From a phage: a stretch of DNA of 64,000 nt. The stretch lies in assembly GCA_024672315.1 (NCBI GenBank), contig GCA_024672315.1_4714.1, one strand, 5' to 3'. Of this stretch, positions 8,690 through 24,237 are shown piece after piece. The first letter of the stretch is position 1. The number at the start of each line of letters is the position of its first letter. Position numbers and translations under genes: made by a program. The notes below the pieces were generated by a model. It did no database searches and was not told the DNA's origin. It was given only the letters and a program-made list of their open reading frames with translations.

Positions 8690-11476
8690 TTATCTTACGT
8701 TATTGCTATTCTGCTGTTCGCTGAACCAACCGTACACCTTGAGATCGGTACCGTATTTCAATGCGATATACGCATTCAATGCAGCACAGAACAAAGACAC
8801 GAATGCCCATATCAGCGAAGGATCAACATCTTCCGTTACCACCGGGAGAGTATTATCCGGTTCCCACGATGGAGAACTGTCCATGAACGTCGTGTACCAT
8901 TCCCGCCGTTGTTCTTCAGTGGTAAAGTCGCTATGAGGTTCCAACGCTTCTTTTGCCAGACGTCGATATTCGAACACATACGTTGCGAAAGCCGATGAGT
9001 TACCAGATTCGCCTTCATAGTTCGGATCCACCGCACAACAGAGTTCTGTGGAATCTAACAAAGCAATCGCTTGTGTGATGCTGTCGGCAGTGCCTGCACC
9101 ATAGAGCTCGATAGACCGCGAAAGCTTTTCACAGAACGTATTTAACGCGGCAGGATTGGACACCTGAAGGTCAAGGCCTAATGTCCACGGATAGTTACTG
9201 AACACGCCCGTAAACCGCGGCAGGACACCCAACAGATGTTGTCCGATTACAGCACGGTTATAAACAGCCCGGTTATAGACTTGAAACGCAGCCTCCAAGG
9301 CTTGGTTATAATGACGACGAAGTTCGTCACGCGAGTTGCGGAATCTGTTTGCCGCAAGACTCGTGGCTGCGACGCTACAAACATCGTAATTGGTGGACGA
9401 GAGCACAGTTTCGTTAAGATCGAACGATTCCTGTTTCAACGATCCGCTAACCGCTGCTGCTTCGCTGTTTGCTTTATCGACAACTGTACTCAAAGCGTTG
9501 ATGTAACGCTTAGCCCGGACTTCCAGCCATTGTGCGATACCGAGAACATCCACAGCGGCTTTAGCAAGGTCACGTGCGTTCACGATTTCGTTCTTCAATG
9601 CCCCTAAACCTTTATTCTCAGGCGAAGAGGCTTGTTGACGAATCATGCTGTTCAACATGGTAAGCAGATTATCCAACTCATGTCCACTGACCTTGTTACG
9701 TGCATCGGTAACTGGTCCTTGCAGGAATTTACGACAACCATCGTTGTATCGAATCAGTTTGTCCACATCGATAGATTCGTTCGTGGATTCCTTGAACTGA
9801 TCCTTCAATTCTTCACGGTAGTCATGGATTTCACTTGCGAGATTATCGATAGTGATACCATCGTGTCCAAGAAGAACTTTATTGAAGTTACCTTTCTCGA
9901 ATGCAAGAGCAAGACCTTCACGAATCTTAGCGAGTTTATCCTGATCGAGTTCGCGACCGTTCGATAGCTCTTTCACTTCCGAGCTGATTAGTGCCGCAAC
10001 GTTACCCAGATTGTCGGTAACGCCTTTGAATGTTCCCGACCAGATCGTTCCTGCTTCAGCATATTTCGCAATGGTCTGAATACCGACGGTGTGCAGCGAC
10101 GCTAAACGTTTCTTCGTGCCTTCGGTAAGCAGAGCGTCTTTAGCTCGCGTAAGCTGGCTGTTATTCGCTTCCGCCTGCTGAATCGCCGCTTTCGCACTTC
10201 CATTACGCCAGCTCTTAACCAGCCAATCGACCAAACGTTTTAGGATGTTGACGGTGTATTCCATCGTCCGCCGTAACGTTTCCCACGCGCTTTCTGCGGT
10301 ATAGATGCCGTACCCTTCCTGCACGAGATCGGTACGTGTGTATCCGTCGGCCGCTTCGATTTCTTCTTGCGTTTTATCCCAAAGCTCTTCGCTACGAACA
10401 GCAGTAGCGGTTTCAGATACCGACATAACAAGCTCAGCAACAGCTTCAGCGTAAGTCAGTACGGTACGCACACATTGCACTAACATGCGCTGGTAAACGA
10501 TACGTGCGTTTTGCAGACGTGCGATAACCGCTAAATAACCGATGTTATCAAGATTTTCATCGGTTTGAGCAGATTCAACGCGTTCTAACAGTTGTTTAAC
10601 TAGCGCCGCTGTTTCTGGGTAATCGTTCACGACGTCACGCATGATTCGTGATGCGAAAACCGCAGTACCTAAAACGGTGAGAAGTGTTTTACCGTCCCAT
10701 TCTTTCGGTGCCGCTACCGATTCAGCAGGGATGAGATTTCCCGCTTGGTCGAAGTACGGCATAAGGACATTGATATCAGTCGACGGAACAGCAGTAATTG
10801 CGTTGTACTCTTCATCCACGCCATCGTTGCCAGACGGTTGTAATGCGAGCGCTTGTTCGAGGATTTTGCGGTCAACAGCGTAAAGCGCCGACAGAGCCTG
10901 TGTTACCGCAACCAGATCAACGATCGGCGACCAGAGCTGTGCGAGCTTACCTTCGTATTTCTGTACAGCGATAGCAAGGTCTTCTTTTACGTCTGGATGA
11001 TCGATCAAACCACCCAATGTTTCATGGATGGCAGAAAAACGTTCAGAATGCGCTTGAGTCAATGCGGTAAAATCGTCAACGTACGACGCATTTTCTTCAA
11101 GACGCGTAAGTTCCTGCTCCAGAAGATCTTTTACTTGCGTGGCGGATGCGTTTCTCAACTGTTCCCCGATAATCGCGATGGCTTTATCGACAACACGGCA
11201 GGCTTCATTGAAACCGGTCGTTGAAGGTAACTCGGTCCATAATGCCAGCGGCTTACCTTCCATTGCGTCAGGAAGGGAATATGACAGCATTGCTAGTTGT
11301 TGACGTGATACCTGTTTGTCACGATGTAATGTTTCTTTCAACGCCAGAAGCTCATCAAGACCCACGCTGCTAGGGATCGTGGGATGTGATACGGCGTTGA
11401 TATTTCCTGTCAATGACTCAAGAACCAATAAACCATTTTCAGCGGAAGATAACCCTGCTTTAAGGTATTTGTTCAT
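8690..11476 (-). CDS. hypothetical large alpha-helical protein (928 aa)
   Basis: Long ORF, helical/coiled-coil-like composition; convergent with 5634..8627; GGAG RBS sits directly 3' of a perfect 12-bp hairpin. Confidence 0.85.
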   Translation of the reverse strand: MNKYLKAGLSSAENGLLVLESLTGNINAVSHPTIPSSVGLDELLALKETLHRDKQVSRQQLAMLSYSLPDAMEGKPLALWTELPSTTGFNEACRVVDKAIAIIGEQLRNASATQVKDLLEQELTRLEENASYVDDFTALTQAHSERFSAIHETLGGLIDHPDVKEDLAIAVQKYEGKLAQLWSPIVDLVAVTQALSALYAVDRKILEQALALQPSGNDGVDEEYNAITAVPSTDINVLMPYFDQAGNLIPAESVAAPKEWDGKTLLTVLGTAVFASRIMRDVVNDYPETAALVKQLLERVESAQTDENLDNIGYLAVIARLQNARIVYQRMLVQCVRTVLTYAEAVAELVMSVSETATAVRSEELWDKTQEEIEAADGYTRTDLVQEGYGIYTAESAWETLRRTMEYTVNILKRLVDWLVKSWRNGSAKAAIQQAEANNSQLTRAKDALLTEGTKKRLASLHTVGIQTIAKYAEAGTIWSGTFKGVTDNLGNVAALISSEVKELSNGRELDQDKLAKIREGLALAFEKGNFNKVLLGHDGITIDNLASEIHDYREELKDQFKESTNESIDVDKLIRYNDGCRKFLQGPVTDARNKVSGHELDNLLTMLNSMIRQQASSPENKGLGALKNEIVNARDLAKAAVDVLGIAQWLEVRAKRYINALSTVVDKANSEAAAVSGSLKQESFDLNETVLSSTNYDVCSVAATSLAANRFRNSRDELRRHYNQALEAAFQVYNRAVYNRAVIGQHLLGVLPRFTGVFSNYPWTLGLDLQVSNPAALNTFCEKLSRSIELYGAGTADSITQAIALLDSTELCCAVDPNYEGESGNSSAFATYVFEYRRLAKEALEPHSDFTTEEQRREWYTTFMDSSPSWEPDNTLPVVTEDVDPSLIWAFVSLFCAALNAYIALKYGTDLKVYGWFSEQQNSNNVR

Positions 11477-11557: not shown

Positions 11558-14350
11558 TTACGCTAATTTACCGAAACCGGCTTTCTGTAGTTTCTCGTTG
11601 ATCAGTTTTGCTTCAGCGAAAACATAATCACGATACGCAGTGACTAATCCATCCACCCGTGAACGCAAGGCTTCTTCGAAGCTATACCACGCAGCGATTT
11701 CACGAATCTGTGCGTTGATATAATCAACGGTTGAGCGAAGCTCGGTTGCGTTTTCTTGCGGGATGGCTTTCACCTGGCGAGCAACGTCATTTAAACGACG
11801 GAACTGTGTTTCGATTTCTTTAAACTTACTGTCGGCAAGTTTGCTGAATTCGTCACCGGAACGGGTAAATAACAGATAGCTGTTGCCGTCAAGTGCGGTT
11901 GCTAACTGCTGAAGTACGTTGGTGTCCGGATACACAGGAGTACCGCTTTGCAGTACTTTCTCACCGAATTCCGCGAAGTCCTTCGGCGGTAAGTGTGCAG
12001 ACGTTGTTAACTCGTTGAAACGGAAAGTCAGCGAATTATCATACAGCATCCGGTACGCTTCCATACCCTGTTTCATAGTACCGGCCAGGTTAGCCAGACG
12101 CGGAGCAATCTCGCCTTCTTTAGCGCGTTTCTGGTCTTCTAACGCCCCTTCGAGTTCTTTACACTGGTCGTTCAGATACACGATACGATCGGGACGCAGA
12201 CGACGCATCTCACGAAGAATAGTATCCAGCTTACCTTCCTGGAAATAACCTAACGTTAATGACGTACACGCTTGCTGAAGACGATCGAACACCGGTAAGG
12301 TCACCATCTCCTTACGGATACCATCAACAATCGCAGAAACAGCCGAAAGTTTCTGTTCGGTGGTTAATGGAACGTCAGAGACCGACTTGCTGGGCGCACC
12401 AACAACGTTACGCATTGCGTCGGTATCCTCGGTTTTATCAACCTCTTTACGAACATGCTCATCAGGAACATAAACGTTCGCGTTACGTTTCGCCTGCTTG
12501 ATGGCGTCGTTGGCCGCTTTTTCGGTGGCTGCTACGCTATCAGCACGTTTCTTCAAGAGTTCAATAATCCAGAGCAACAGACGACGAATCGCAGTATAGG
12601 CCGTCGTGATGATGACACCGATAACAGCCATCTTCATGATACCGAACGATTCCATGGTCGGCTCTAATGCCTGGTCTGGCATATACCGTTCACGCAGTTC
12701 CAGATAGATCTGCTCATCTGGTTTGCTGATCTCACCACGATGCGAAGTCCGATAGATGGCTTCGTCAATCTCAACAAGATCTTTGCGTGCCTGACGATCG
12801 GATTCTGTTAAGTAAGCACAACCGGATACATCATCTTCGAAGCTTAAGAATTTGAAGAAGTCGCTGACATCGATCTTGATCTTCTTCGTTTCATTGTCAA
12901 CGTTAATGAAATCCGTTTTACGAGACTGCTGTTGAATCTTAATATCCTTTATCGGTTTAAGCGCTTTGTCTTTTAATGCCTGCATGATCTGTTTCCAGCT
13001 GGCATCGCGTTCAAGAACAAGGAAATAGTTCTTGAGTTCGAATGCGCGATAGCGGGCAACAAGTTGTTCTACCTGGACATGAGCGAGTTGTACGTCCATC
13101 AGCCAACGCGACAGCGCAGAAACCAAACGGCTATACGCAAGCAGCGTCTGGTACGTCAGCTTCATGTGTTTCTCGTAGAGCTCGATGTCTCCGCCCTGGA
13201 TGTCGGCTGTCGGGTTCATTTCCTTCGTTGCTTTGAAGACTTGTTCGGCTTCATTCAGCATCTGCTCGAACTTGACTTCATTGAACGCGTTGAATGGTTC
13301 GGCCAGTTCGTTCATCCGATCGTGCAGTTCGCGAACCCAAGCTTCTTTGTGATTACGAATGACCGCATCAGCGTGGAGTTCGGTTTGATGTTTCTGTACC
13401 CATTCTTCAATGATATCCGCAGCTGCAACAACGCCCGTGTTGTCAGAAATCAATGGAATGACGTTAGAGAGCGTACCCGCACATGCTGGTGTTTTCCAAT
13501 GATCGTTAAGCGTGTTGCGGAACGTAATGATGTCCGTCATAGACGTAGTGATATCGAGGAACGTGTTACCGTTACGACTCATGCTTGTGATGTTTGTGGC
13601 AAACGTCTTTTGTTGTTCTACAACGAATGGAATCAACGCCATCAACCAATCAGCAATACATTTTGCTTTTTCTTTCAGGTTTTTGTCGGCGATTTCTTTG
13701 AGATTAATTGCGCCGCCGTAACCTGCAAGTTCGTTATACACATCGTTCAAGGTCATCTGCGCGTCAAGCATTTCTTTGAAACGCGGATAATCTTCCCCTA
13801 ACGCATCGATGATATCCTGGATAACGTCGTCGGTTGTAGCGATAAATTTCTTCGTGTCGACTTTAGATTTCCAGATTATTTTCACCGCTTCTTTCATAAC
13901 GGTGAACATGATCTGCCAAATACGCTTAATAAGTTCCCAGACTTTCTTCGCACCATCGACAAACAGTTTAGAGACCTTGGCAACGAATCCTTCCTGCACC
14001 AATTCAACGCCGTTACGTGATGGGATTTCCGTGAAGAAAGCATCCGGCAGTTGTTTCGGGAATGCGTCACCAAGACGCATACGTAGTTCCGGTACATCAG
14101 CACGAGAAATACCGCGTGTTACTAATTGTTCGTGAAGACGAACGTTTTCTTCACCGGCAGCCACGAATTCGTCAACATCGAAGGAGACCATTGTTTCCTG
14201 ATCTTCGGTGGTAACGACGCTTGAACCATCGCTGGTCTGGATGTCCTCGTCAGGGAACGCCATGAGCATACCGTGACGCATTTCAACCACTCCGTAATCG
14301 GTTGCTAAACCGAATTCGTTGTGATCGGGGGTAATAACTGGAATACTCAT
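11558..14350 (-). CDS. hypothetical large alpha-helical protein (930 aa) with a hydrophobic segment; tape-measure- or ejection-protein-like composition
   Basis: Long ORF; hydrophobic stretch MAVIGVIITTAYTAIRRLLLWII; Lys/Glu-rich helical regions; assignment by composition only. Confidence 0.85.
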   Translation of the reverse strand: MSIPVITPDHNEFGLATDYGVVEMRHGMLMAFPDEDIQTSDGSSVVTTEDQETMVSFDVDEFVAAGEENVRLHEQLVTRGISRADVPELRMRLGDAFPKQLPDAFFTEIPSRNGVELVQEGFVAKVSKLFVDGAKKVWELIKRIWQIMFTVMKEAVKIIWKSKVDTKKFIATTDDVIQDIIDALGEDYPRFKEMLDAQMTLNDVYNELAGYGGAINLKEIADKNLKEKAKCIADWLMALIPFVVEQQKTFATNITSMSRNGNTFLDITTSMTDIITFRNTLNDHWKTPACAGTLSNVIPLISDNTGVVAAADIIEEWVQKHQTELHADAVIRNHKEAWVRELHDRMNELAEPFNAFNEVKFEQMLNEAEQVFKATKEMNPTADIQGGDIELYEKHMKLTYQTLLAYSRLVSALSRWLMDVQLAHVQVEQLVARYRAFELKNYFLVLERDASWKQIMQALKDKALKPIKDIKIQQQSRKTDFINVDNETKKIKIDVSDFFKFLSFEDDVSGCAYLTESDRQARKDLVEIDEAIYRTSHRGEISKPDEQIYLELRERYMPDQALEPTMESFGIMKMAVIGVIITTAYTAIRRLLLWIIELLKKRADSVAATEKAANDAIKQAKRNANVYVPDEHVRKEVDKTEDTDAMRNVVGAPSKSVSDVPLTTEQKLSAVSAIVDGIRKEMVTLPVFDRLQQACTSLTLGYFQEGKLDTILREMRRLRPDRIVYLNDQCKELEGALEDQKRAKEGEIAPRLANLAGTMKQGMEAYRMLYDNSLTFRFNELTTSAHLPPKDFAEFGEKVLQSGTPVYPDTNVLQQLATALDGNSYLLFTRSGDEFSKLADSKFKEIETQFRRLNDVARQVKAIPQENATELRSTVDYINAQIREIAAWYSFEEALRSRVDGLVTAYRDYVFAEAKLINEKLQKAGFGKLA

Positions 14351-14819: not shown

Positions 14820-16130
14820 TTAGGCGATAATGGAATCAAGAGTCGCTGCGGTTTTGAACAGATCGCTGTTCATTGTAGAAGAAAGGGCTTGCTGAATTTC
14901 TTCCTGTTTAACCGCCTTACGAACCCCAGGACGAAGGGCGATAGTCACCATTTGCATGAACGTACGGTTGTTGTTCATTTCTTTCAGTGTATCATCGATT
15001 GTTTTAATCGTGTCTAGCGTAGTTGAACGGATATCGTTAGGGAGATCGCGATCTTTCAGGCGTATAATCAGATCCTGTTTGATCTTACGGAATCGTTCCA
15101 TATCGTTATCGTAAATGTTGTATGTTGGATCTAACCAAACTGCAAGCGCCATAGCGGCAACAAATATTGCCATACCGAGAATATTAACCGAGGTGAAACT
15201 GATTGCAATCAGAATAGCCACGGCGGCATCTTTAATGAAGGAGAGCCAGAACATCGTTTTGGACTTCATGGAGTCTTTGCTATAAAGCCGATACATTTTA
15301 GCAAGCCCGCTAACGAGATACTCCCCACCACCATGACGCGTAGCGAACTGATCAGCCATGAATTCGGAAGCAACGTCGGTATATCGTCCAGCGTTATTTA
15401 CATTTCGTAATTGCATCGCTTTGTTAGATACGTAAACCGTGTACCAGACACTACCATCGTCTGAATCACTGATTTTATTTACGTCGACGTTGGTATCCAG
15501 CGTTTTGTTTAACGCTTTAGCCAGTTCGATACGTTTTACCTTATCGGTTGTCCCCAACAGTTCACGCTGCACGGTCATGATTGAGGCTTCGACACGAACC
15601 GTTTCCGACAATGTTTCGAGGAAAGTAAATGCGTGCCCGATTTCATGCAGCATTATGGCTGCTTTTTCTTCCGGAAGAAAGGGTTCTGTCGCTGTTAGCA
15701 GTTCATACGTGATGGCAGAACGAATCTTCAACTCTTCAAAGATACCGTAAACACGACCTTTTTCTAAATCGACGTAACCGACAGGCACATCTTTAATCTT
15801 CTTAAGGAGTGCGACACCATCAGCACCGCGCATCCATAACCGATGATAGTCTGCCAGGATCGTGTTGTTTGTCGAAATATCCGGCGGGTACACGTAGGCA
15901 TTCATCTGGCCCATTTTCACGTCGACCGAGAATTCGATGTTCAACCCCGTATAGCGTTTAACCATCTCGGTTAAATGTCCGTCCTTGAAAACGTTTAAAA
16001 CATCTTTTTTATCCAGTCCCTGTTTGCTTCTGAAGAACTCGGTCATTTCCTTGAACAAGGAACCATCCTGAAACTTGATGGCCTCCATCGTTAATTCGTC
16101 ATGACCATACACGCGTTGTAGTAATGACAT
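14820..16130 (-). CDS. HExxH zinc-metallopeptidase-like membrane protein
   Basis: 436-aa ORF; HEIGH motif (..AAIMLHEIGHAFTFL..) and a C-terminal hydrophobic region (FWLSFIKDAAVAILIAISF..AIFVAAMALAVWL). Confidence 0.6.
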   Translation of the reverse strand: MSLLQRVYGHDELTMEAIKFQDGSLFKEMTEFFRSKQGLDKKDVLNVFKDGHLTEMVKRYTGLNIEFSVDVKMGQMNAYVYPPDISTNNTILADYHRLWMRGADGVALLKKIKDVPVGYVDLEKGRVYGIFEELKIRSAITYELLTATEPFLPEEKAAIMLHEIGHAFTFLETLSETVRVEASIMTVQRELLGTTDKVKRIELAKALNKTLDTNVDVNKISDSDDGSVWYTVYVSNKAMQLRNVNNAGRYTDVASEFMADQFATRHGGGEYLVSGLAKMYRLYSKDSMKSKTMFWLSFIKDAAVAILIAISFTSVNILGMAIFVAAMALAVWLDPTYNIYDNDMERFRKIKQDLIIRLKDRDLPNDIRSTTLDTIKTIDDTLKEMNNNRTFMQMVTIALRPGVRKAVKQEEIQQALSSTMNSDLFKTAATLDSIIA

Positions 16131-16141
16131 TGTACACTCTC

Positions 16142-16159
16142 TAAATTTACGTAAATTTA
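16142..16159. promoter_or_regulatory. 18-bp perfect palindrome (operator-like) in divergent intergenic region
   Basis: TAAATTTAC|GTAAATTTA; ~12 nt upstream of the ATG of the HExxH gene (14820..16130) and ~190 nt upstream of the divergent exonuclease gene. Confidence 0.6.
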
Positions 16160-16351
16160 AGGGCTAATGGATCGGCTGGCCGCACCAATCACAATGTGTC
16201 CGCTGCTATGCAACGGCATTCATAGAAATACCTTTTGACGGTAACATCACCGTTCATACCCCAAGCAATAAGAGTGGTCGGTTAAAAACAACAGAACGTG
16301 GGGATGATATAGAAAATCACCTTTTAACACTTATTACGAGTTTATCAAGCC

Positions 16352-17851
16352 ATGAGCGAACAAGAACGAAAACCTAAGAAGAAACTGCTCGGTATTCAAT
16401 GTCGACACATCAGTTATAACGAAGCGAACGATGGCAGCAAGAACGACCTCATGATCGCAAAAGAGATCATGTTCTTTGATGATAACACACAAGCGACGAA
16501 TCTTCGCTTCTTCGAGAATTACAAACGTCCGTTTTGGGTGACGGTAGAGAGTAAACGCAAGAACAAATATAAAAAGGAAAGCGAGAAGCTCTCGCACGTG
16601 CGTCGCTACGATGTCCGTCAAAGTGAACTGGTTGAAAAGATCAGTTCGGTGCTTTATAAAAGACGTGCTGATGATAACACCCGTCTACAGCAGCTTGCAC
16701 GGAGTCCATACCTCTATGGCACGGACGTTAGCGCCAGCTGTTATTTAAAAACTCAGTACAACACAAAATGGCCGGAATACGTCGATAAATTACCCGCTTC
16801 CATTGCCTGTTTCGATATCGAAACCGACGTTGTCCATGGACACGGTAAGATCGTCTGTATGTCTATTACAATGGGATACAATGCGATACTTTGCTATACC
16901 AAGGACTTCGTTGGTCATATTCCGAATGCCATTGAGAAAACCCATGAGAAGATTCGATATTACCTGGCCGAACGTCTGAACACCAAAGAAGATCCTCACG
17001 CGTTCGAAAAATATCAGTACGATGTGCGAATCGTAGAAAGTCCGGCACAAGCGGTCATCCAATGCATGCAGAAGGTTCACGAATGGCAGCCGGATTATCT
17101 CCTTGGCTGGAATATCGCGTTCGATATTCCGCGCATGCTCCAGGCACTGAACGAAGAAGGGTATCGTCCCGAGGATGTTTTCTCCGATCCTCGTGTACCA
17201 CCTAAATATCGCATTGCTCGCTGGGTACCACCGAAGACCGACAAGGTATCTGCTTCAGGGCGTAAAACCAACCTTACCCTTGAGCAAACCTGGCCGATGT
17301 TTTATACGATGGCTACGTATCAGGTTATGGATGCGATGTGTGGTTATAAGTTCGTTCGTTTAGGAAGACCGGATGAGGGACGCTATTCACTCGATGCGGT
17401 ATTAGAGCGAAATAAATGCCATACGAAATTAAAAGCAATTCCTGGTACAGAAGGGTTCACGGAGCTCGCCTGGCACGAAGAGATGCAAACGAACCATCAA
17501 ATCGACTACGGCGTATATAACCTTTGGGATAACCAGGGTATCGAGGCGTTGGACCAGAAAACAAAAGACTATTCGATGACCATCCCTATTCGTTTAGCGG
17601 CGTCGGATTTGAAAGATTTCAGTTCTAACCCTAAACGTATCTGCGATAAACTTTTCTTCGTTTATCTTAACCGTGGGGAAGTCATGGGATGCACCGCCGA
17701 CGACATGACCCAGGAAGAAGATAAGTGGGTTATCTCACGAACCGGACATATCGTCACATTGCCGTGCGATCTCATGGCGGACAACGGCATCCATCTCTTC
17801 TGGGATATGCCTAATTTAAGGAGCTATATTCGATTATTTGTTGCGGATTAA
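16352..17851 (+). CDS. DEDDy-type 3'-5' exonuclease protein resembling the proofreading domain of family-B DNA polymerases (no polymerase domain)
   Basis: 499 aa; Exo I-like FDIETD, Exo II-like WNIAFDIP, Exo III-like YNLWD in the right order; none of the polymerase motifs (DxxSLYPS, KxxxNSxYG, YGDTDS) in this ORF or downstream. Confidence 0.75.
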   Translation: MSEQERKPKKKLLGIQCRHISYNEANDGSKNDLMIAKEIMFFDDNTQATNLRFFENYKRPFWVTVESKRKNKYKKESEKLSHVRRYDVRQSELVEKISSVLYKRRADDNTRLQQLARSPYLYGTDVSASCYLKTQYNTKWPEYVDKLPASIACFDIETDVVHGHGKIVCMSITMGYNAILCYTKDFVGHIPNAIEKTHEKIRYYLAERLNTKEDPHAFEKYQYDVRIVESPAQAVIQCMQKVHEWQPDYLLGWNIAFDIPRMLQALNEEGYRPEDVFSDPRVPPKYRIARWVPPKTDKVSASGRKTNLTLEQTWPMFYTMATYQVMDAMCGYKFVRLGRPDEGRYSLDAVLERNKCHTKLKAIPGTEGFTELAWHEEMQTNHQIDYGVYNLWDNQGIEALDQKTKDYSMTIPIRLAASDLKDFSSNPKRICDKLFFVYLNRGEVMGCTADDMTQEEDKWVISRTGHIVTLPCDLMADNGIHLFWDMPNLRSYIRLFVAD

Positions 17852-17940
17852 CCTTCGTTCTGTAAAAGTTTACTTCATGTAAGAATTGTGTGCGGCATAA
17901 GAGAGGCCGATACATCTAGATATTACATGAGGTTTACGAG

Positions 17941-19131
17941 ATGGAAAAATCTATACATACTCAAACTGGAACTATTGACTATCGCGATTCAGCATATTTG
18001 CCGTACACAAATCATCGTTATCGTATATTTGAAGATGGCGAGTTGTACGACTATAAAGAAGATAGGGTCGTCCCTTACGAAGTTGTAGACGGTGTCCCTT
18101 ATGTTGAAATCGATTGGTATAGAGGCATTGGAAAATACGATCTCGGTATGATCATTCTCACCGTTCTTGAACGGGTTGCTTTACCAGATCACCTTTACGA
18201 TGAAATTGAATCGTTGTTTGTGGACGGAGATCCGACTAACTTTTCGTATAGCAATCACATCTACCGTTTCCGTAATGGGCCGTTAGAAGTTGAGGGATTC
18301 GAAGGTTATTGTTATATTCCGTTTGCATCTCGTTACGCGATAAATAAAGAAGGACATTGTATTAGTCTTCTTTCGTTGGATCCTATCACGTGGACGAAAA
18401 CGGTTCAGCAAGGCACACGTCTTGGCGGATACGCTTATCGTAAAGTGGTTCCTGATAGCGGGTTTACACCGCAGTTGTATCGTCACCGAGCTATCATGTT
18501 AGCGTTTACGAGATATGATGCTAACGTTGTGAACTTAACCGTAAATCATAAAAACGGAATTAAAGGTGACGATTGGTTTGACAACCTCGAATGGGCGACA
18601 TATGCCGAGAACAATCAACATGCTCGTATGGCAGGGTTGTGTATAGGTACGTCAAAACCTGTTTTGGTTTATGATTACCGTGCACGAATCGAACGTCGTT
18701 TTAATAGTATCGCAGAAGCGGAACGTGCTTATCCGTACGTACCGAAAGGACGTTTCAAATGGTGGGTAAACAATCCCCCGAAACGTATCCCAGAATGCGA
18801 TTTATACATCAAGTTTGCCACGGACAATACGCCTTGGCCAGAGTGGAAACTTGGAGAAGATCGTCGTGTCGAGGACACCGATGGTCGCGGTATTCTCGCT
18901 ATTAATAAAGAGACGAACGAACGACATGTGTTTCCATCAGTAACTGCTGCCGCAAATGCGTTAGGAATCTCCTGGATTACCGTAAGACGTCATTGCGATC
19001 GTCGTGCAGTACCTACGAAACAGCCTTGGTGTTTTCGTTATGCTGATGATATTGCCGCTATGCCCGATTTCGATGTTAGTAAATTAGTTCCTAAGAAGAA
19101 GCGTGTATTTAATGTTCCATTAGAACGATAA
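17941..19131 (+). CDS. HNH homing endonuclease
   Basis: 396 aa; HNH signature VNHKNGIKGDDWFDNLEWATYAENNQHA; GAGG RBS; immediately downstream of the exonuclease gene. Confidence 0.8.
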   Translation: MEKSIHTQTGTIDYRDSAYLPYTNHRYRIFEDGELYDYKEDRVVPYEVVDGVPYVEIDWYRGIGKYDLGMIILTVLERVALPDHLYDEIESLFVDGDPTNFSYSNHIYRFRNGPLEVEGFEGYCYIPFASRYAINKEGHCISLLSLDPITWTKTVQQGTRLGGYAYRKVVPDSGFTPQLYRHRAIMLAFTRYDANVVNLTVNHKNGIKGDDWFDNLEWATYAENNQHARMAGLCIGTSKPVLVYDYRARIERRFNSIAEAERAYPYVPKGRFKWWVNNPPKRIPECDLYIKFATDNTPWPEWKLGEDRRVEDTDGRGILAINKETNERHVFPSVTAAANALGISWITVRRHCDRRAVPTKQPWCFRYADDIAAMPDFDVSKLVPKKKRVFNVPLER

Positions 19132-19134
19132 CAG

Positions 19135-19649
19135 GTCCCCCTACTTGTAATGAGTGGGTGAACTCTCTTTAATTGCTGGAAACCTTTAATGCCCCTCCAC
19201 ACCACAACGCAATCCGAAAGGGTAAACGTGATGGTTGTCGAAAGACAGAAAAAAGTTGGAGGGGATTACCTATGTTGCAATAAAAGCCACCGCTTTCTTG
19301 GATAACGAAAGATGACGGTGGTACTAAGGGTAGAAGATAGAAATAAGGTAACCGTAGCAGCGAAGACCCTACGGACTGTCGTGACCGACTCGATGAGTTG
19401 GCGTGGTTAACACGGACAGGCTACGGGTAACGTTCAACGACCATCCGGTTGCGCGGAGTAGGAGAATTAGGATGTTCTCCGAAAAGGGAGAAGTCGGTCG
19501 AGGTGTTGTAGAAACACCGTTGGGTTTGCTAACGCGAATATAAGACAGGCTAAGATATGGTCTATTTTTCGTTGTGTTCATGTATAGAAATTACTGAACC
19601 ATCGTAAGAGCTCGATATATCTTCAAGCTATCCAAATGGGCAGATCCTG
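19135..19649. other. ORF-poor, stem-loop-rich region downstream of the HNH gene (candidate structured RNA or intron remnant)
   Basis: ~0.5 kb with no convincing ORF on either strand; nested hairpin CCACCG ctttc ttggataac gaaag atga CGGTGG (~19287..19320); no tRNA-like T-arm seen. Confidence 0.3.
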
Positions 19650-19865
19650 TTGAATCTATCCAGAGCATGTGTTTTTCGTGAGCTCTCGCGCATTGAGGGC
19701 GTCTCTGACTATCAATTCAGGAAGTTAGGTATCAACTTTATTACCGGAGGTAAAACGAACGCTGTAGACTTCTGTAGAATCGTTTATAAAGCACCGTCGA
19801 TGTTTGAACTTTTAGAACATTTCGATGCGACGCGCCCAAAAGAGGAAGCGCGGACCATCGAATGA
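19650..19865 (+). CDS. hypothetical small protein (doubtful)
   Basis: 71-aa ORF at the end of an ORF-poor region; weak RBS; could be non-coding. Confidence 0.2.
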   Translation: MNLSRACVFRELSRIEGVSDYQFRKLGINFITGGKTNAVDFCRIVYKAPSMFELLEHFDATRPKEEARTIE

Positions 19866-19910
19866 ATCAAGTATGTTGATCCTCGTTTAACAAAAAGAAA
19901 ACGCATGCGA

Positions 19911-19957
19911 AGCCCCTCCCCCTGGCGGAAGCCGGAGGGAGGGGTGAGGTTTATGCG
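19911..19957. promoter_or_regulatory. GC-rich intergenic stem-loop (related family)
   Basis: CCCCTCCC cctggcggaagccgga GGGAGGGG tgaggtttatgcg; 8-bp outer stem with inner GGC/GCC stem and GGAA loop; between the ORF-poor region and minus gene 19951..20436. Confidence 0.7.
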
Positions 19958-20436
19958 CGTTCGTTGCCAACCGTTACTTTGTAGTCAGCGTCGGTTAAGA
20001 AAATAGACAGGAATCCATGTTCTTTGCAAATCTGACTAAGGATGTCAGCAATGATTTCGTTGATCATCGGTTTGTTTGCAAGGGCATAGATGTACCCGGG
20101 TGTAAAAGAAAGTGCATGATTGATCATAGGCTCATGAGAAGCCAAGATAAGGATCACGTGATGCTTCCCATCGTCGGTAACGACCGCTTGCGTAGACACG
20201 AAGAAATCAGTGAAGCAGCAGCGATCACAGGCTTTAGGTATATACAAATCACCCAGAGCTTCGTCGCGTGCTTTTATGTGTGTTTCAGGGGTGATGCTGC
20301 TAAGTTGATCTTCAGCGAGATCCAAGACATCCTCAATCGTTTTAAGAATAGCGTTGCGGAAATCCTCGCGGTAGAATGGGATGATATCACGATCGTTCAT
20401 GTAATCGCCGGATTCGATAGTAAAGTTGATGTTCAT
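19951..20436 (-). CDS. hypothetical protein
   Basis: 161-aa acidic ORF with AGGAG RBS; preferred over the overlapping plus-strand ORF 20017..20439 by strand context and RBS. Confidence 0.7.
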   Translation of the reverse strand: MNINFTIESGDYMNDRDIIPFYREDFRNAILKTIEDVLDLAEDQLSSITPETHIKARDEALGDLYIPKACDRCCFTDFFVSTQAVVTDDGKHHVILILASHEPMINHALSFTPGYIYALANKPMINEIIADILSQICKEHGFLSIFLTDADYKVTVGNERA

Positions 20437-20546
20437 TGAATGCTCCTAGTGGTTATGTCGATTGATTGACGTGTTAATTTATGTTTGATGAGGTATACTT
20501 GAAACTACAAATAAGGCTCTTGGCGTTGCTGTTATGGTTCAGTTCT

Positions 20547-20999
20547 TTATCCCTTGTTGGATTCGTCAATATACTTGGTGTCGTAAGACAAATGCTGAAT
20601 TAATTTTCTAGGTCTGATGAATATACGACATGTGATAAACACATCAGGATCGTATTGTTCCACGCAACGTCCGAAGGCTCGTTTTGCGGACTGACGCATC
20701 AAGGTTAATTCCTGATCGTTCATCTCATCATCAAATTCGATGTGTATCGTGATTTTATCGGGAAATAAATAGATAGAGTAGTCGCTACCGATATCACCGT
20801 CGTCAAAACGATAATCGTTGTGGTAATGGTGGAGTTTACCTTCGTGTATCGTCTGGTACCACCCGACGATACTATCAAGACCCATACCCAGGCGTCCGAA
20901 TGCCTGATTAATAATATCTTCGACGATGGATGCGGGTGTGGGACCATTGAATAGACGATCTAAGCGCTTTTTCATCGATTTGTCGGTTTTCATGTTCAT
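20547..20999 (-). CDS. hypothetical protein
   Basis: 150-aa ORF with AGGAAAAG RBS. Confidence 0.7.
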   Translation of the reverse strand: MNMKTDKSMKKRLDRLFNGPTPASIVEDIINQAFGRLGMGLDSIVGWYQTIHEGKLHHYHNDYRFDDGDIGSDYSIYLFPDKITIHIEFDDEMNDQELTLMRQSAKRAFGRCVEQYDPDVFITCRIFIRPRKLIQHLSYDTKYIDESNKG

Positions 21000-21027
21000 T
21001 GTTTCTTTTCCTGTGTAGTCGGTATAC

Positions 21028-21067
21028 AGCCCTTCCCCGGCCTTGATGGCTAGGGAAGGGGCTATGC
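21028..21067. promoter_or_regulatory. GC-rich intergenic stem-loop (related family)
   Basis: AGCCCTTCCCC ggccttgatggcta GGGAAGGGGCT atgc; imperfect ~11-bp stem; between minus genes 20547..20999 and 21075..21473. Confidence 0.65.
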
Positions 21068-21074
21068 TACGTTG

Positions 21075-21473
21075 TTATGCTTCGCAATCAGCTGAAGGCG
21101 TCGCGCCTTTCTTACCAGCGATACGCCAAATCCGACACGCTGGGTAATGGTTAACCTCTAGAGAGCAAGGAATGTTATATTTCTCTTCCAGCGCATAAAG
21201 ACATTTCGTTAGCTGCTCCAGCGCGTTCTCGTCGTGTCGTAACGCGTGGTGGCCTAATCGATGTTGGTCGTTCTTTATATACGCCTCGAAGAGAACATGT
21301 TGGCGATGTACGCTGACGTTTACAGCCTCGAGTATAGCTTGGTCGAGCATACGACTAAAGCACATCAACGAGTCAGATACGTTTTCTCGCTTAACCAGAT
21401 CGATCATGGTGGGAATATACGAATGGTCGATGTTATCGATGACCGCTTTAGCGACGGAATCAGCAACGTTCAT
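21075..21473 (-). CDS. hypothetical protein, paralog of 21510..21905
   Basis: ORF track starts at 21503; ATG at residue 11 (MNVADSVAKAVIDNIDH...) aligns with the N-terminus of the neighbouring paralog (MSIVESIVKAVNDNIDH...); shared C-terminal EEKYNIP(C/F)SLEVN. Confidence 0.7.
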   Translation of the reverse strand: MNVADSVAKAVIDNIDHSYIPTMIDLVKRENVSDSLMCFSRMLDQAILEAVNVSVHRQHVLFEAYIKNDQHRLGHHALRHDENALEQLTKCLYALEEKYNIPCSLEVNHYPACRIWRIAGKKGATPSADCEA

Positions 21474-21509
21474 CTTTTTAATCCCTAGTTTGTTATTGAT
21501 CACGTATAT

Positions 21510-21905
21510 TTACTCTTTGACGTCAGTTGTCGTTTCGACATGCTTCTCACTACTGACGTACCAGAGCAGGTACGTTGGGAAAAGATTGACCTCTAAGCTA
21601 AATGGGATATTGTATTTCTCTTCCATTTTACAGAGATGTTCTTTAAGTAAATTTCTCGCGTCTCTGTCACCACGAACAGAGTGCCAGTCTAGTTCTTTGT
21701 TCTCCTTTACCAGGACCTCTACGATGATACGTTGCTCGTGAACCTCGGTTTTCACAGTGAAAAGTAAATCGCTGCTATCAAAACGGGTAAAACGAATGTA
21801 TGAACCAGGTGTTTTTTCTTGTTTGATAATATCGATCATGGTAGAAATGCGCGGATGATCGATGTTGTCGTTAACAGCTTTAACGATGGATTCTACAATG
21901 CTCAT
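21510..21905 (-). CDS. hypothetical protein, paralog of 21075..21473
   Basis: 131-aa ORF; clear similarity to the adjacent gene. Confidence 0.75.
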   Translation of the reverse strand: MSIVESIVKAVNDNIDHPRISTMIDIIKQEKTPGSYIRFTRFDSSDLLFTVKTEVHEQRIIVEVLVKENKELDWHSVRGDRDARNLLKEHLCKMEEKYNIPFSLEVNLFPTYLLWYVSSEKHVETTTDVKE

Positions 21906-21938
21906 TTTTTTATCCTTAATGTTATCGATTTGTAAATA

Positions 21939-22706
21939 TTACTTATTTTTGCTTTCTTTATAGACAGTTGTTACCCACGATGGGAAAGCCGGATGGAAAC
22001 AGAGCGTGAACGTAACTGTCGTATCGTATTTAAACGCACAGTTCACTAACCGGGTATCGAACGTTTTCCTTAGACCATCATCATCGTTATCGATGACAGC
22101 CATATCTCTTAATATCCCAAGCACGTTAACGCCGTCGAGTGTCTGGGTTACAACAAGTCGTCGTAATGGCCCGCATGTATAGTTACGTACAAATCCTTTC
22201 TTCGGGTCCGATACCCTGTTTAACGCATCGTGATTTTTGATGAATTCATCGGCGATCCAATAGATTTGTTCCCTTGCTTTATCGGGATCGTATTCTGCTA
22301 ATAGTTCCTTCGTGTCGAACGTTATCACGTTATTATCATTCGATTCAGAAGGGAAACATAAAACTAAACGAACAGGGTATTCGTATTGATCTGTTCTTGT
22401 TTCGAAAGCATTAGCTAAACACGGCTTGTATGCCTTTGCGTCGACATTGTCCAAACATGGATGCAATAATGCGTGAATAACGGCACCATCGTCAGTTAAA
22501 CCGAATTCCAGAAATTGTACCCTATCAGTATCCGCTACGGTTTTCTGAAGATACGCTTTACCGTTTACGATATCGGTATCCCACATATCGTCGTTTAACG
22601 ATTCTTCAAACTTATCGAATATATGGTTTACGAGATTGACGAGTTCATCAATACGGCACTGTTGGTTGAATTCGATTAATCGCTGAACTTTATCTTTGAT
22701 AGACAT
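21939..22706 (-). CDS. hypothetical protein
   Basis: 255-aa ORF; contains an EYDPD segment like the small paralog family downstream. Confidence 0.75.
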   Translation of the reverse strand: MSIKDKVQRLIEFNQQCRIDELVNLVNHIFDKFEESLNDDMWDTDIVNGKAYLQKTVADTDRVQFLEFGLTDDGAVIHALLHPCLDNVDAKAYKPCLANAFETRTDQYEYPVRLVLCFPSESNDNNVITFDTKELLAEYDPDKAREQIYWIADEFIKNHDALNRVSDPKKGFVRNYTCGPLRRLVVTQTLDGVNVLGILRDMAVIDNDDDGLRKTFDTRLVNCAFKYDTTVTFTLCFHPAFPSWVTTVYKESKNK

Positions 22707-22708
22707 GA

Positions 22709-23167
22709 TTACCCCTTAGCTCCTTCTTCGTCTGGAGAGTATTCCATCGTGTAGAATTCATAACCGTCGGAAAACTTGAGTGTTAATGTAATAGGGAAAT
22801 CGCACGGCATAGCTGATTTCGTAAATGCGTTATTAGCAACATCCGCCAACCGACGTATAGCATCAACCCCGCTGACGCTGAATGGTAGTTGTATGTTGAT
22901 AAGGATACGATGCTTGTAAACATAGAAAACAACGGTACTGTCAAGATAAACGCTATGAAACGGTATTGTTGGGATGCGTTCCACGATGGTAAAATACGTG
23001 CCGTCATTATCGCTATGTCCCATCGACCAAATATCGGATTTACGTAGATTTTGTTTGAGGGATTCGATACTTCGAGTGACGGTCTCAGCAACAGGCGTGA
23101 CGTAAGTGTCTCTATGCGAGTCGAAAAGTTCGTTGACGTTAGATTCGAATGAATACATTGTTGCCAT
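22709..23167 (-). CDS. hypothetical small acidic protein, paralog family member
   Basis: 152 aa; shares QLPFSV(S/N)G ... (F/L)T(M/L)EY(S/E)PD with 23167..23628. Confidence 0.75.
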   Translation of the reverse strand: MATMYSFESNVNELFDSHRDTYVTPVAETVTRSIESLKQNLRKSDIWSMGHSDNDGTYFTIVERIPTIPFHSVYLDSTVVFYVYKHRILINIQLPFSVSGVDAIRRLADVANNAFTKSAMPCDFPITLTLKFSDGYEFYTMEYSPDEEGAKG

Positions 23168-23628
23168 TATTCTACCTCTTTCTTCATCTTCATCGGAACA
23201 GAGAGTGCTGTTATCTCTGTTCCATTATCCGGTTCATACTCCAATGTAACGAGATTGCAGCCATCCGATAATTCATAATCGATCGCTAGGGGGAACGAGA
23301 TACCGTGCGACTTTATGCATTTACCAAATGTCTCGTTGGCTGTATACATTAGAAGTTGCTTTGCGGCAAGCCCGTTTACGCTGAAAGGTAATTGTGCTGT
23401 CGCAGCGATACGATTATTGTAAACTCTGATATCGGTGATATCTACAATCGTAGCATTGCCGTGTTGTGTTGTTGGAACGGATAGGTTGTAGAAGTAAGGT
23501 TCGGAGTCGGAATCGGACTCATTAAATAATTCCCAGCATCCGTCCTCCTGCAATCTTACCTCGAGTATTTCAAAGCTTTTAATTATCGATTCTACCAGCT
23601 GCTCACCGTAAGAATCCCACGTCGTCAT
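23167..23628 (-). CDS. hypothetical small acidic protein, paralog family member
   Basis: 153 aa; paralog of 22709..23167; stop and start overlap by 1 nt (TAATG). Confidence 0.75.
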   Translation of the reverse strand: MTTWDSYGEQLVESIIKSFEILEVRLQEDGCWELFNESDSDSEPYFYNLSVPTTQHGNATIVDITDIRVYNNRIAATAQLPFSVNGLAAKQLLMYTANETFGKCIKSHGISFPLAIDYELSDGCNLVTLEYEPDNGTEITALSVPMKMKKEVE

Positions 23629-23699
23629 TTTTTAACACCTTCGACACCTTTTAACCGATACGTGTCCCACCTAACAAGGGACACGATATCGTCGATTAA

Positions 23700-24194
23700 T
23701 TACTCTTCTGTGTTTTCATTGTCAGGATCGTAGTGGAATTCGAACAGCCCTGAACCGTCGTGTCCGTTGATTGTTAGTATAACTGGCATATCGAATCCTC
23801 GGACGCGCGAATGAAAACACTGTGCTAATTTTAGTTTGGCGTATGCCGCTATTTCATTGACGGCAATACACGACTCACCTGTTATACTCAGTATAACGTC
23901 GATACTAACAATGTTGTCGTGCAACGCAAAACGCCAGCGATCGATACGATTATTATCTTTAGCAGCTGTCTCGTTTACGAGATAGACTTTATCGTCAACC
24001 GACAAAGCAGGTCTCCAGCAACTGTTGTTCCTTAAATTCGCCTCGAATCGCAGCATCGTTGTGTCGATAATATCCCAACATGCAACTAGTACGGTATTGG
24101 GCACTAAATTGAGAAGAGCTGATACCCTATCCTTTATTTTAAGTGCTTCCGCAGGACGCCCGCAAATACCATGCATTTCAACTTTCTTATCCAT
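23700..24194 (-). CDS. hypothetical small acidic protein, probable paralog family member
   Basis: ORF track starts at GTG 24200; ATG at residue 3 has GAGGTG RBS; C-terminal ..FEFHYDPDNE resembles the family. Confidence 0.7.
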   Translation of the reverse strand: MDKKVEMHGICGRPAEALKIKDRVSALLNLVPNTVLVACWDIIDTTMLRFEANLRNNSCWRPALSVDDKVYLVNETAAKDNNRIDRWRFALHDNIVSIDVILSITGESCIAVNEIAAYAKLKLAQCFHSRVRGFDMPVILTINGHDGSGLFEFHYDPDNENTEE

Positions 24195-24237
24195 ATTCAC
24201 CTCTTTTTTAATCTAAATGTTAGTTGGGATAGGGCGA

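Follow-up and report, generated by a model that had tools for sequence, protein, structure and literature searches.

An HNH-encoding group I intron probably interrupts motif A of the phiKZ-type DNA polymerase gene of a Goslar-like jumbo phage

A 64 000-nucleotide stretch of phage DNA (contig GCA_024672315.1_4714.1, hereafter the window) raises the question of how a DNA polymerase gene should be read that appears to end soon after its proofreading motifs and is followed, on the same plus strand, by an HNH endonuclease gene and a structured stretch free of open reading frames (ORFs). An earlier interpretation made from the letters alone, here called the sequence-only reading, offered two explanations: a naturally split polymerase whose junction was invaded by a free-standing homing endonuclease, or a group I intron that encodes the HNH protein itself and is flanked by an exon that is short or degenerate. 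Our analysis favours the latter, supported by an Rfam match to the ribozyme core, the splice-site rules, intron-less alleles and homologous introns. With a probability of roughly 93 %, region 16352–19865 is a single gene, that of the N-terminal/exonuclease subunit of a two-subunit phiKZ-type family-B DNA polymerase, which is interrupted in motif A by a mobile group I intron carrying an I-HmuI-like endonuclease gene in its P1 loop. The insertion point follows codon 499, two codons ahead of the catalytic aspartate (D501) of motif A. This type of element is familiar; the instance described here is unannotated and polymorphic in nature.

Positions 16000–20000 of the window are 97.9 % identical, in a single collinear piece, to Escherichia phage vB_EcoM_Goslar (NC_048170, 79338–83338), a nucleus-forming jumbo phage, and the window as a whole spans roughly 63.7–127.7 kb of Goslar. 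In the Goslar record, ORF 16352–17851 corresponds to gp068, 'DNA polymerase' (499 amino acids, aa), and ORF 17941–19131 to gp069, 'NUMOD1 domain protein'; the second exon proposed here is unannotated, and there is no feature from gp069 to the next gene, which lies on the opposite strand.

The 499-aa product of ORF 16352–17851 matched PHROG 3011 ('DNA polymerase') over profile positions 5–494 of 576 and gave a weak match to Pfam DNA_pol_B_exo1. The three proofreading motifs named by the sequence-only reading are present in the order expected, with Exo I DIETD at aa 155, Exo II NIAFD at 254 and Exo III YNLWD at 389, and the residues D155/E157, N254/D258 and Y389/D393 were invariant among 70 homologues; the distance from the Exo III aspartate to the end of the ORF is 106 aa, rather than the ~55 aa given earlier. 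Exon 1 differs from Goslar at 44 nucleotides, which change a single amino acid. In an AlphaFold model of a natural full-length allele (P0001, described below) residues 6–460 were predicted with confidence, and the predicted fold resembled that of RB69 gp43, T4 gp43, Pol epsilon and Pol II over their N-terminal/exonuclease part (E-values down to 1e-12).

No polymerase domain had been recognized downstream of this ORF. However, 19611–19865 supplies 84 codons that continue the same family: a small ORF at 19650–19865 (71 aa) matched PHROG 3011 positions 508–571 (E=4e-13), and its frame is open back to 19608, where it reads ELDISSSYPNGQILLNLS.... Once joined to exon 1, this frame carries motif A as DLDISSSYPN (D501-ISSSYPN), in which D499, D501, Y506 and P507 were invariant among the 70 homologues. 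The label 'exonuclease-only fragment' therefore suits the unspliced reading but not the gene, since exon 2 adds motif A. Ten nucleotide differences separate exon 2 from its Goslar counterpart, all silent and none a replacement, and by this measure the exon is under strict purifying selection. Three of the ten fall at or upstream of TTG19650, the only candidate start codon, and Goslar has CTC at that codon, which excludes an independent start there. Three collinear stretches of the polymerase-family profile could be aligned to RB69 gp43; in the third, ...vaDLDvsssYPn...NIskET falls on RB69 404–431 (MSFDLTSLYPSIIRQVNISPET), where RB69 has its motif A, including the catalytic D411, and its NISPET segment.

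The two exons can be joined in one way that satisfies both protein and ribozyme. Ligation of T17848 to C19611 yields ...FVAD-LDISSSYPN... within a 583-aa product, with GCGGAU|CUCGAU as the predicted ligated junction (in longer form ...UUGCGGAU|CUCGAUAUA...) and LFVADLDISSSYPNGQILLNLSR as the predicted junction peptide, and 17848|19611 is the only junction that gives the conserved ADLD together with an exon-final U and an intron-final G. Following the group I splice-site rules, the exon-final U17848 pairs with G19135 within GGAUU/GGUCC and the intron closes on G19610. The intron boundaries were set by alignment with phiKZ gp082 and with two intron-less alleles (L009 and L088). The phiKZ protein, an uninterrupted orthologue, runs straight through the corresponding position (...HIADLDIVSTYPN... 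/ ...HIADLDIVSTYPNVSQILNIARET...), the orthologues of RP31 and Eowyn likewise read uninterrupted, and the 583-aa product is collinear with all three.

Relatives without the HNH gene encode an uninterrupted protein of this 583-aa type. A protein collection searched with the predicted product contained a natural 583-aa protein (P0001) that is continuous over the junction, with two amino acid differences, and that is encoded by an uninterrupted 1752-nt gene on the 237-kb contig L009. A second and more divergent intron-less allele, L088, came from a metagenome and differs from the 583-aa product at 10 aa. The exact 499-aa protein of the window (P0121) was present on 139 contigs and the 499-aa protein of Goslar on 51, mostly from Escherichia coli and Salmonella isolate assemblies, and a single 90 %-identity cluster held many 499-aa alleles as well as 583-aa alleles on >100 contigs, the two allele classes together accounting for >300 contigs. 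As intron-less and interrupted alleles both occur naturally on many contigs, the interruption is a presence/absence polymorphism and not an artefact. The splice junction was not found in complete RefSeq E. coli genomes, nor were the exact junction 30-mers found in IMG/VR.

Downstream of the HNH gene, 19132–19610 (479 nt) contains no ORF and shows a modest folding excess over shuffled sequences (z=−2.35), in agreement with the structured, ORF-free stretch of about 500 bp described previously. A 1.9-kb Rfam scan matched Intron_gpI (RF00028) at 19067–19585 with 43.7 bits (E=2.3e-9); when the whole window was scanned this was the only Rfam match (E=7.6e-8), and a scan at the gathering thresholds returned no match. 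The Rfam alignment displays P3, J3/4-P4 AAUUGCUGG (AAUUGC... P4), P5, P6, P8, P9 and the 3′ strand of P3, together with J6/7-P7 GUUCAACGACCA, J8/7-P7′ AAGAUAUGGUC and an insertion that forms P7.1/P7.2. Extra helices P7.1/P7.2, placed after P7 and before the 3′ strand of P3, characterize subgroup IA in the Michel–Westhof scheme, the home of the classical phage introns, and we take the P7.1/P7.2 of the window intron to be this subgroup IA feature. Coordinates are collected in Table 1, and the helix pairs at all of them were checked for complementarity.

In the proposed structure the P1 extension bridges the endonuclease gene and closes a 1.26-kb loop, and the internal guide GGUCC stands three bases past the endonuclease stop codon. 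A local P1, in which GGAU would pair with GUUC at 17857–17860, was dropped for this long-range P1 because the guide motif AACAGGUCC and, after it, P2 and P3 are shared with L013, an ORF-less intron at the same site as that of the window (Intron_gpI, 79.7 bits), and because the bridging helices covary in L010, L011 and L012, which are metagenomic introns at the identical site with homologous HNH genes. Their bridging helices are unrelated in sequence (AGUUGUUU/AAACAACU, CCCUU/AAGGG and AUUGCA/UGCAAU, respectively). A hand-curated comparison with four to six related introns, including L013, L010 and those of phages PhiPA3 and HPP-Temi, found the P1 extension, P2, P3, P4, P6a, P7, P7.1, P7.2, P8 and P9 to be complementary with differing sequences; compensatory examples are P7 (GACCA/UGGUC versus GACUA/UAGUC) and P7.1 (UCCG/CGGA versus UGGG/CCCA). 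Six of the seven differences between the cores of the window and Goslar fall in the P8 domain, and where Goslar has U for C19480, pairing is preserved as G-U.

The HNH endonuclease gene that had been noted 3′ of the polymerase ORF is genuine. Its product matched Pfam NUMOD1 at aa 322–351 (29.5 bits, above the cut-off of 22.8), Pfam HNH_3 just below the cut-off (23.3 against 24.8 bits) and PHROG 59 (E=3e-18). A profile built from five endonucleases matched residues 11–112 of I-HmuI (PDB 1U3E; E=1.9e-9); phmmer with the single sequence returned no match in PDB. The five endonucleases, from introns at both of the insertion sites discussed below, are homologous over their length at 27–30 % identity, and the motif VNH..G...D...N.(E/S)W.T...NN.HA is invariant in five homologues. 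Compared with Goslar, the gene has 15 nucleotide differences and one amino acid change. The 92-nt leader ahead of the gene is predicted to fold (−27 kcal/mol, z=−4.56) into a hairpin that buries the Shine–Dalgarno sequence GAGG (17929–17932). The ribosome-binding sites of I-TevI, I-TevII, I-TevIII and mobE are likewise sequestered in an RNA hairpin (PMC2988022).

Table 1. Coordinates of the exons, the predicted intron elements and the endonuclease gene (window numbering)
Feature	Position	Strand	Details
Exon 1, polymerase N-terminal/exonuclease subunit	16352..17848	+	499 codons; ends ...RLFVAD; last base T17848
Group I intron	17849..19610	+	1762 nt; first codon in-frame UAA; last base G19610
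P1, 5′ strand	17845..17849	+	GGAU|U; pairs with guide GGUCC 19134-19138; splice-site pair U17848-G19135
Bridging helix (P1 extension), 5′ strand	17855..17862	+	UCGUUCUG, 8 bp; pairs with UAGAACGA at 19121-19128
Leader hairpin	17872..17933	+	11 bp; 17872-17882 with 17923-17933
HNH homing endonuclease gene	17941..19131	+	396 aa; I-HmuI-like; NUMOD1 domain; in P1 loop
Bridging helix 3′ strand, stop codon and guide	19121..19138	+	3′ strand 19121-19128; endonuclease stop UAA 19129-19131; internal guide GGUCC 19134-19138
P2 hairpin	19140..19158	+	CCUACU/AGUGGG
P3	19163..19490	+	19163-19170 with 19483-19490; domain encloses P4-P7.2
P4	19174-19179 with 19352-19359	+	
P5	19183-19186 with 19345-19348	+	160-nt extension with GNRA hairpins
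P5a	19192-19199 with 19257-19264	+	
P6/P6a	19360-19433	+	
P7, 5′ strand	19439-19443	+	
P7.1	19444-19457	+	UCCG/CGGA; loop GUUGCG common to L013
P7.2	19461-19480	+	
P8 domain	19493..19550	+	GUCGGUC/GACAGGC, one G-A mismatch; inner hairpin 19502-19518
J8/7, P7 3′ strand, P9 and intron end	19551..19610	+	J8/7 AAGAUAU; P7 3′ strand UGGUC 19558-19562; P9 hairpin 19576-19599; terminal G19610
Exon 2	19611..19865	+	84 codons + stop; LDISSSYPNGQ...; polymerase motif A

The remaining polymerase motifs belong to another gene. Goslar gp244 matched PF20286, 'divergent family B DNA polymerase' (E=2e-204), and carries motif B (KLDNNSLSG) and motif C (LSDTDS) without motif A; it is the gene for the fingers/palm/thumb subunit and lies 93 kb away in Goslar, outside the window, within which no gp244 homologue was found (best tblastn E=7.9). 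The polymerase of the phiKZ group was already known as a split enzyme (PMC5105663; PMC7824862). The idea that the polymerase half is encoded elsewhere is correct for this distant gp244-type subunit, but it does not account for the junction 17848|19611. As the 'exonuclease' subunit carries motif A and its partner motifs B and C, two polypeptides would have to come together to form the active site.

Several points count against a functional intron in motif A. The group I model was found by Rfam, but its score falls under the curated gathering score of 50, and the P1/P2 placement offered by Rfam is spurious, being in the 3′ end of the HNH gene; the low score is attributable to the real P1, which spans a 1.27-kb insert, and to large insertions in P5 and P8. 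The helix table was curated by hand, and an automatic MAFFT/RNAalifold alignment of five mini-introns misplaced the 3′ half of the window intron. P1 has five pairs only, two of them G-U, P10 would be ~2 bp, and P8 contains a G-A mismatch. On the protein side, the HMM alignment of the motif A segment to RB69 is weak when taken alone (1.9 bits), and AlphaFold gave low confidence to residues 465–583 of P0001, with pLDDT <50 at residues 497–515, so that the assignment of motif A rests on sequence pattern, collinearity and invariance. The low-confidence segment of P0001, which comprises the tail of exon 1 and exon 2, would be consistent with a segment that folds only against its partner subunit. 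A low Rfam score, a short P1 and P10 and a mismatched P8 are also what a decayed, non-splicing intron would display, the phage then managing with a 499-aa, exonuclease-only protein. However, exon 2 has accumulated silent changes only and its key residues are invariant among the homologues, and the core differences from Goslar avoid or preserve helices. Moreover, as the partner subunit has no motif A, a non-splicing allele should leave the phage with no working replicative polymerase, yet P0121 is widespread and Goslar, a laboratory phage with the same interruption, is viable. We consider decay of the intron very improbable.

A permanently split gene, in which two cistrons flank a free-standing HNH endonuclease gene and their products reassemble without RNA splicing, has precedent, as such arrangements are documented in T4-like phages with inserted endonuclease genes, including a split family-B polymerase (PMC2988022), and this phage family already divides its polymerase and RNA polymerases into several polypeptides. 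This was the first alternative of the sequence-only reading, and it fails on the second cistron: from the stop codon at 19605–19607 there is no ATG, GTG or TTG before codon 14 of exon 2 (TTG19650), which is downstream of motif A, and Goslar lacks this codon and shows silent differences around it in the exon frame. In addition, a group I core whose splice-site nucleotides are correct occupies exactly the place between the two pieces, relatives have ORF-less introns at the same site, and intron-less relatives read through. A split gene retains only a slender chance, slightly above that of a decayed intron. A frameshift or misassembly of a contiguous gene, or an intein, has the truncated appearance of the ORF in its favour and nothing further. 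The same 1762-nt insertion is base-for-base collinear in the independently sequenced Goslar, with differences that are almost all silent, and the 499-aa allele occurs on many independent contigs; protein splicing is impossible, given the in-frame UAA at the start of the insert and an HNH ORF that lies out of the exon frame behind the 92-nt leader. Artefact and intein are practically negligible. Taken together, the evidence returns us to a mobile group I intron, for which the anatomy, the homology, the junction, the purifying selection and the natural presence/absence polymorphism are established.

The mechanism that we propose, including splicing, endonuclease activity and homing, is predicted from sequence. 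The polymerase gene would be transcribed as one pre-mRNA across exon 1, intron and exon 2. The 5′ exon end GGAU would pair with the guide GGUCC 1.29 kb downstream, the two being brought together by the 8-bp helix that closes the loop containing the endonuclease gene, and the P3–P9 core would catalyse guanosine-initiated splicing at U17848 and G19610. Ligation of ...FVAD to LDISSSYPN... would produce the 583-aa protein, which would supply motif A, the rest of the active site coming from the separate fingers/palm/thumb subunit (the gp244 homologue). Unspliced RNA would be read to the UAA at 17849–17851, giving a 499-aa product without D501, Y506 and P507. When a relative lacking the intron infects the same cell, the I-HmuI-like endonuclease presumably nicks or cuts the allele of that relative, after which repair would copy the intron and ~50 bp of flanking exon into the cut allele.

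If splicing occurs as predicted, the product of Goslar gp068 is a 583-aa protein with the catalytic motif A and not a 499-aa protein, and the corrected gene model is relevant to work in which the chimallivirus replisome is purified, modelled or knocked down. RNA splicing would be needed for replication, as motif A is supplied by exon 2. Transcription in these phages is confined to the phage nucleus, apart from translation (reviewed in PMC12908238), and by inference splicing would be located there too.

The polymerase-subunit gene carries related introns in other phages. The PhiPA3 orthologue is annotated as two ORFs (gp085 and gp084), between which lies an ORF-less Intron_gpI (71.7 bits) with P1 GGAU|UAA-AUA-UUAGUCC. 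In HPP-Temi the PhiPA3 intron is found again (59.2 bits) with an HNH gene inserted in its P1 loop (GGAU|UAAAUAU[ORF]UUAGUCC), and the encoded protein is the closest relative of the window endonuclease in the phage collection outside Goslar (31.5 % identity). These introns resemble that of the window in host gene, motif A, exon end GGAU, in-frame UAA, guide GUCC and a P7.1/P7.2 core, and the HPP-Temi intron also in having a homologous HNH gene in the P1 loop; the GGAU/GUCC P1 recurs in L010. They differ in that insertion is 6 nt (two codons) downstream, at ADLD|I (site B) compared with AD|LD in the window (site A), and in the P5 extension, which is much larger in the window intron, and the 3′ tail, which is shorter there. 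In the database entries of PhiPA3 and HPP-Temi, too, an intron annotation is lacking. Each of the seven introns opens on a stop codon in frame with the exon (UAA or UGA), and G is the last base of all five that are complete. Within L010, a second ORF of 215 aa with no Pfam match on record was observed in the P5 region (6429–7076), besides the HNH gene of the P1 loop.

Homologues from metagenomes (P0042–P0120; loci L005, L008 and L010–L013) end prematurely at one of three recurring positions: ...AD| like the window, ...ADLD| like PhiPA3, and ...DW(I/M)| ~35 codons upstream. In the phages Joad, D3 and AP1 the match extends no further than query aa 449. The three recurrent interruption points mark the polymerase-subunit gene as a hot spot for insertions. 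The guide GUC(C) is offered NGAU at site A as well as at site B, and the sequences point to one intron/endonuclease family at two sites 6 nt apart, one after each motif A aspartate codon. Site-hopping by the guide of the ribozyme (reverse splicing), rather than by the endonuclease alone, would fit this pattern. Elsewhere in Goslar, outside the window, an annotated Intron_gpI (NC_048170, 169269–169645) lies by the HNH endonuclease gene gp186 and an RNA polymerase subunit gene, which brings the group I introns of this phage to at least two, only one of them annotated.

The exon flanks carry a further signal. Between the window and the intron-less L009, 71 of the 1752 exon positions differ, and 28 of these lie between −37 and +23 of the junction (window 17812–17868 joined to 19611–19633, compared with L009 5461–5520 and with L088). 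All 28 are silent, within 61 nt, and include three switches between serine codon families, against ~2.5 % divergence elsewhere in the gene; the G+C content of the tract is 33 % in intron-plus phages and 48 % in L009. Inclusion of L088 narrows the intron-associated haplotype to −33..+20 (~54 bp), which is completely associated with intron presence among four genomes, two intron-plus and two intron-minus. The intron-minus haplotype reads GAC|CTY, compared with GAT|CTC in intron-plus phages, and its GAC offers no U as needed at the splice site. The flank haplotype is the trace that would be expected from homing co-conversion or from selection for endonuclease resistance. Intron-less phages may possess a target that resists the endonuclease, or the intron may have brought with it, by co-conversion, an exon tract of foreign origin. 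Polarization with the 67 %-identical, intron-less L014 gave a mixed picture, the 5′ flank resembling intron-minus and the 3′ flank intron-plus phages.

Intron-plus and intron-minus phages co-circulate at ~96 % identity. An ongoing conflict between intron and endonuclease carriers and their relatives among Goslar-like phages of E. coli and Salmonella is a tentative and rather doubtful suggestion, modelled by analogy on PhiPA3 gp210 against phiKZ. The natural intron-plus/intron-minus pair constitutes a ready E. coli system for endonuclease-driven interference competition, which has so far been shown only for PhiPA3 and phiKZ. A related proposal, that intron-less alleles avoid GAU at the motif A aspartate codons to escape ribozyme or endonuclease, was not supported. 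Among uninterrupted IMG/VR alleles, 53 of 65 have GAC/GAC at these codons compared with 59 % GAC overall, but the catalytic aspartates of Exo I and Exo III are also 82–92 % GAC, so that the bias is not specific to the intron site. As a separate observation, in the IMG/VR loci L015–L087 catalytic aspartates (motif A, Exo I and Exo III) are 82–92 % GAC against 57–59 % for all aspartates, and other conserved aspartate positions are unbiased; this looks like codon choice at catalytic residues, unrelated to the intron.

Contigs of ~240 kb resembling Goslar were observed in assemblies of E. coli and Salmonella isolates, hundreds of them, their proteins (P0121–P0149) being filed as bacterial 'hypothetical proteins', which suggests that these phages either contaminate cultures or persist in them in a carrier state; no Goslar-like phage was present in the complete RefSeq E. 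coli genomes. Around the polymerase gene, gapless collinearity with Goslar is lost left of ~14.8 kb, in or near a 930-aa ORF (11558–14350), and neither this ORF nor the adjoining 928-aa ORF (8690–11476) had a PHROG match. On the minus strand, 19951–24200 holds eight consecutive ORFs of 131–255 aa, several of them visibly paralogous (for example 21075–21503 with 21510–21905, and 22709–23167 with 23167–23628); the ORFs of this run vary in size from the window to Goslar and to L009, and at ~20.9 kb the base-by-base correspondence with Goslar breaks off. A G+C-rich inverted repeat (CCCCUCCC...GGGAGGGG, ~19912–19944) between exon 2 and the convergent ORF 19951–20436 may be a bidirectional terminator, which a terminator scan did not pick up. 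Counts from the scan for sigma-70 promoters and terminators were at the level of shuffled sequences; these phages use their own RNA polymerases.

Among known systems, close parallels in design are the self-splicing introns of group I found in the DNA polymerase genes of the Bacillus phages SPO1, SP82 and Bastille, with their HNH nickases I-HmuI, I-HmuII and I-BasI. There, as in the window, a conserved region of a phage DNA polymerase gene is interrupted and an HNH endonuclease is encoded in the intron. However, those polymerases belong to family A and that of the window to family B, and the endonuclease gene of those introns is in a different intron loop. I-HmuI has 174 aa compared with 396 aa for the window endonuclease. 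The td, nrdB and nrdD introns of T4 (subgroup IA2; I-TevI, I-TevII and I-TevIII) are likewise phage introns in DNA-metabolism genes, with ORFs in other loops; they differ in the genes occupied and in that I-TevI and I-TevII are of the GIY-YIG family. The sequestered ribosome-binding site of the T4 intron endonucleases (PMC2988022) is comparable to the leader hairpin predicted here.

Within the same virus family, HNH-bearing introns in chimallivirus RNA polymerase genes are already known. As described by Birkholz et al. 2024 (PMC11620839), the gp210 intron of PhiPA3 is a group I intron that lies in a gene for a virion RNA polymerase and has an HNH endonuclease, which gives a competitive advantage over an intron-less relative. 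Both introns are inserted beside the catalytic aspartates of an essential polymerase, an RNA polymerase in PhiPA3 and a DNA polymerase in the window. Genes split by inserted endonuclease genes are known from Aeromonas phages 25 and 44RR, whose gene 43 is divided into 43A and 43B with the endonuclease gene seg43(25) at the split, and from Aeh1 nrdA with mobE (PMC2988022). The Aeromonas gene 43 product is, like the phiKZ-type enzyme with its two genes, a family-B polymerase of two polypeptides. However, seg43(25) is free-standing and no splicing takes place there, whereas the polymerase of the window is split into subunits elsewhere and 17849–19610 would be removed as RNA.

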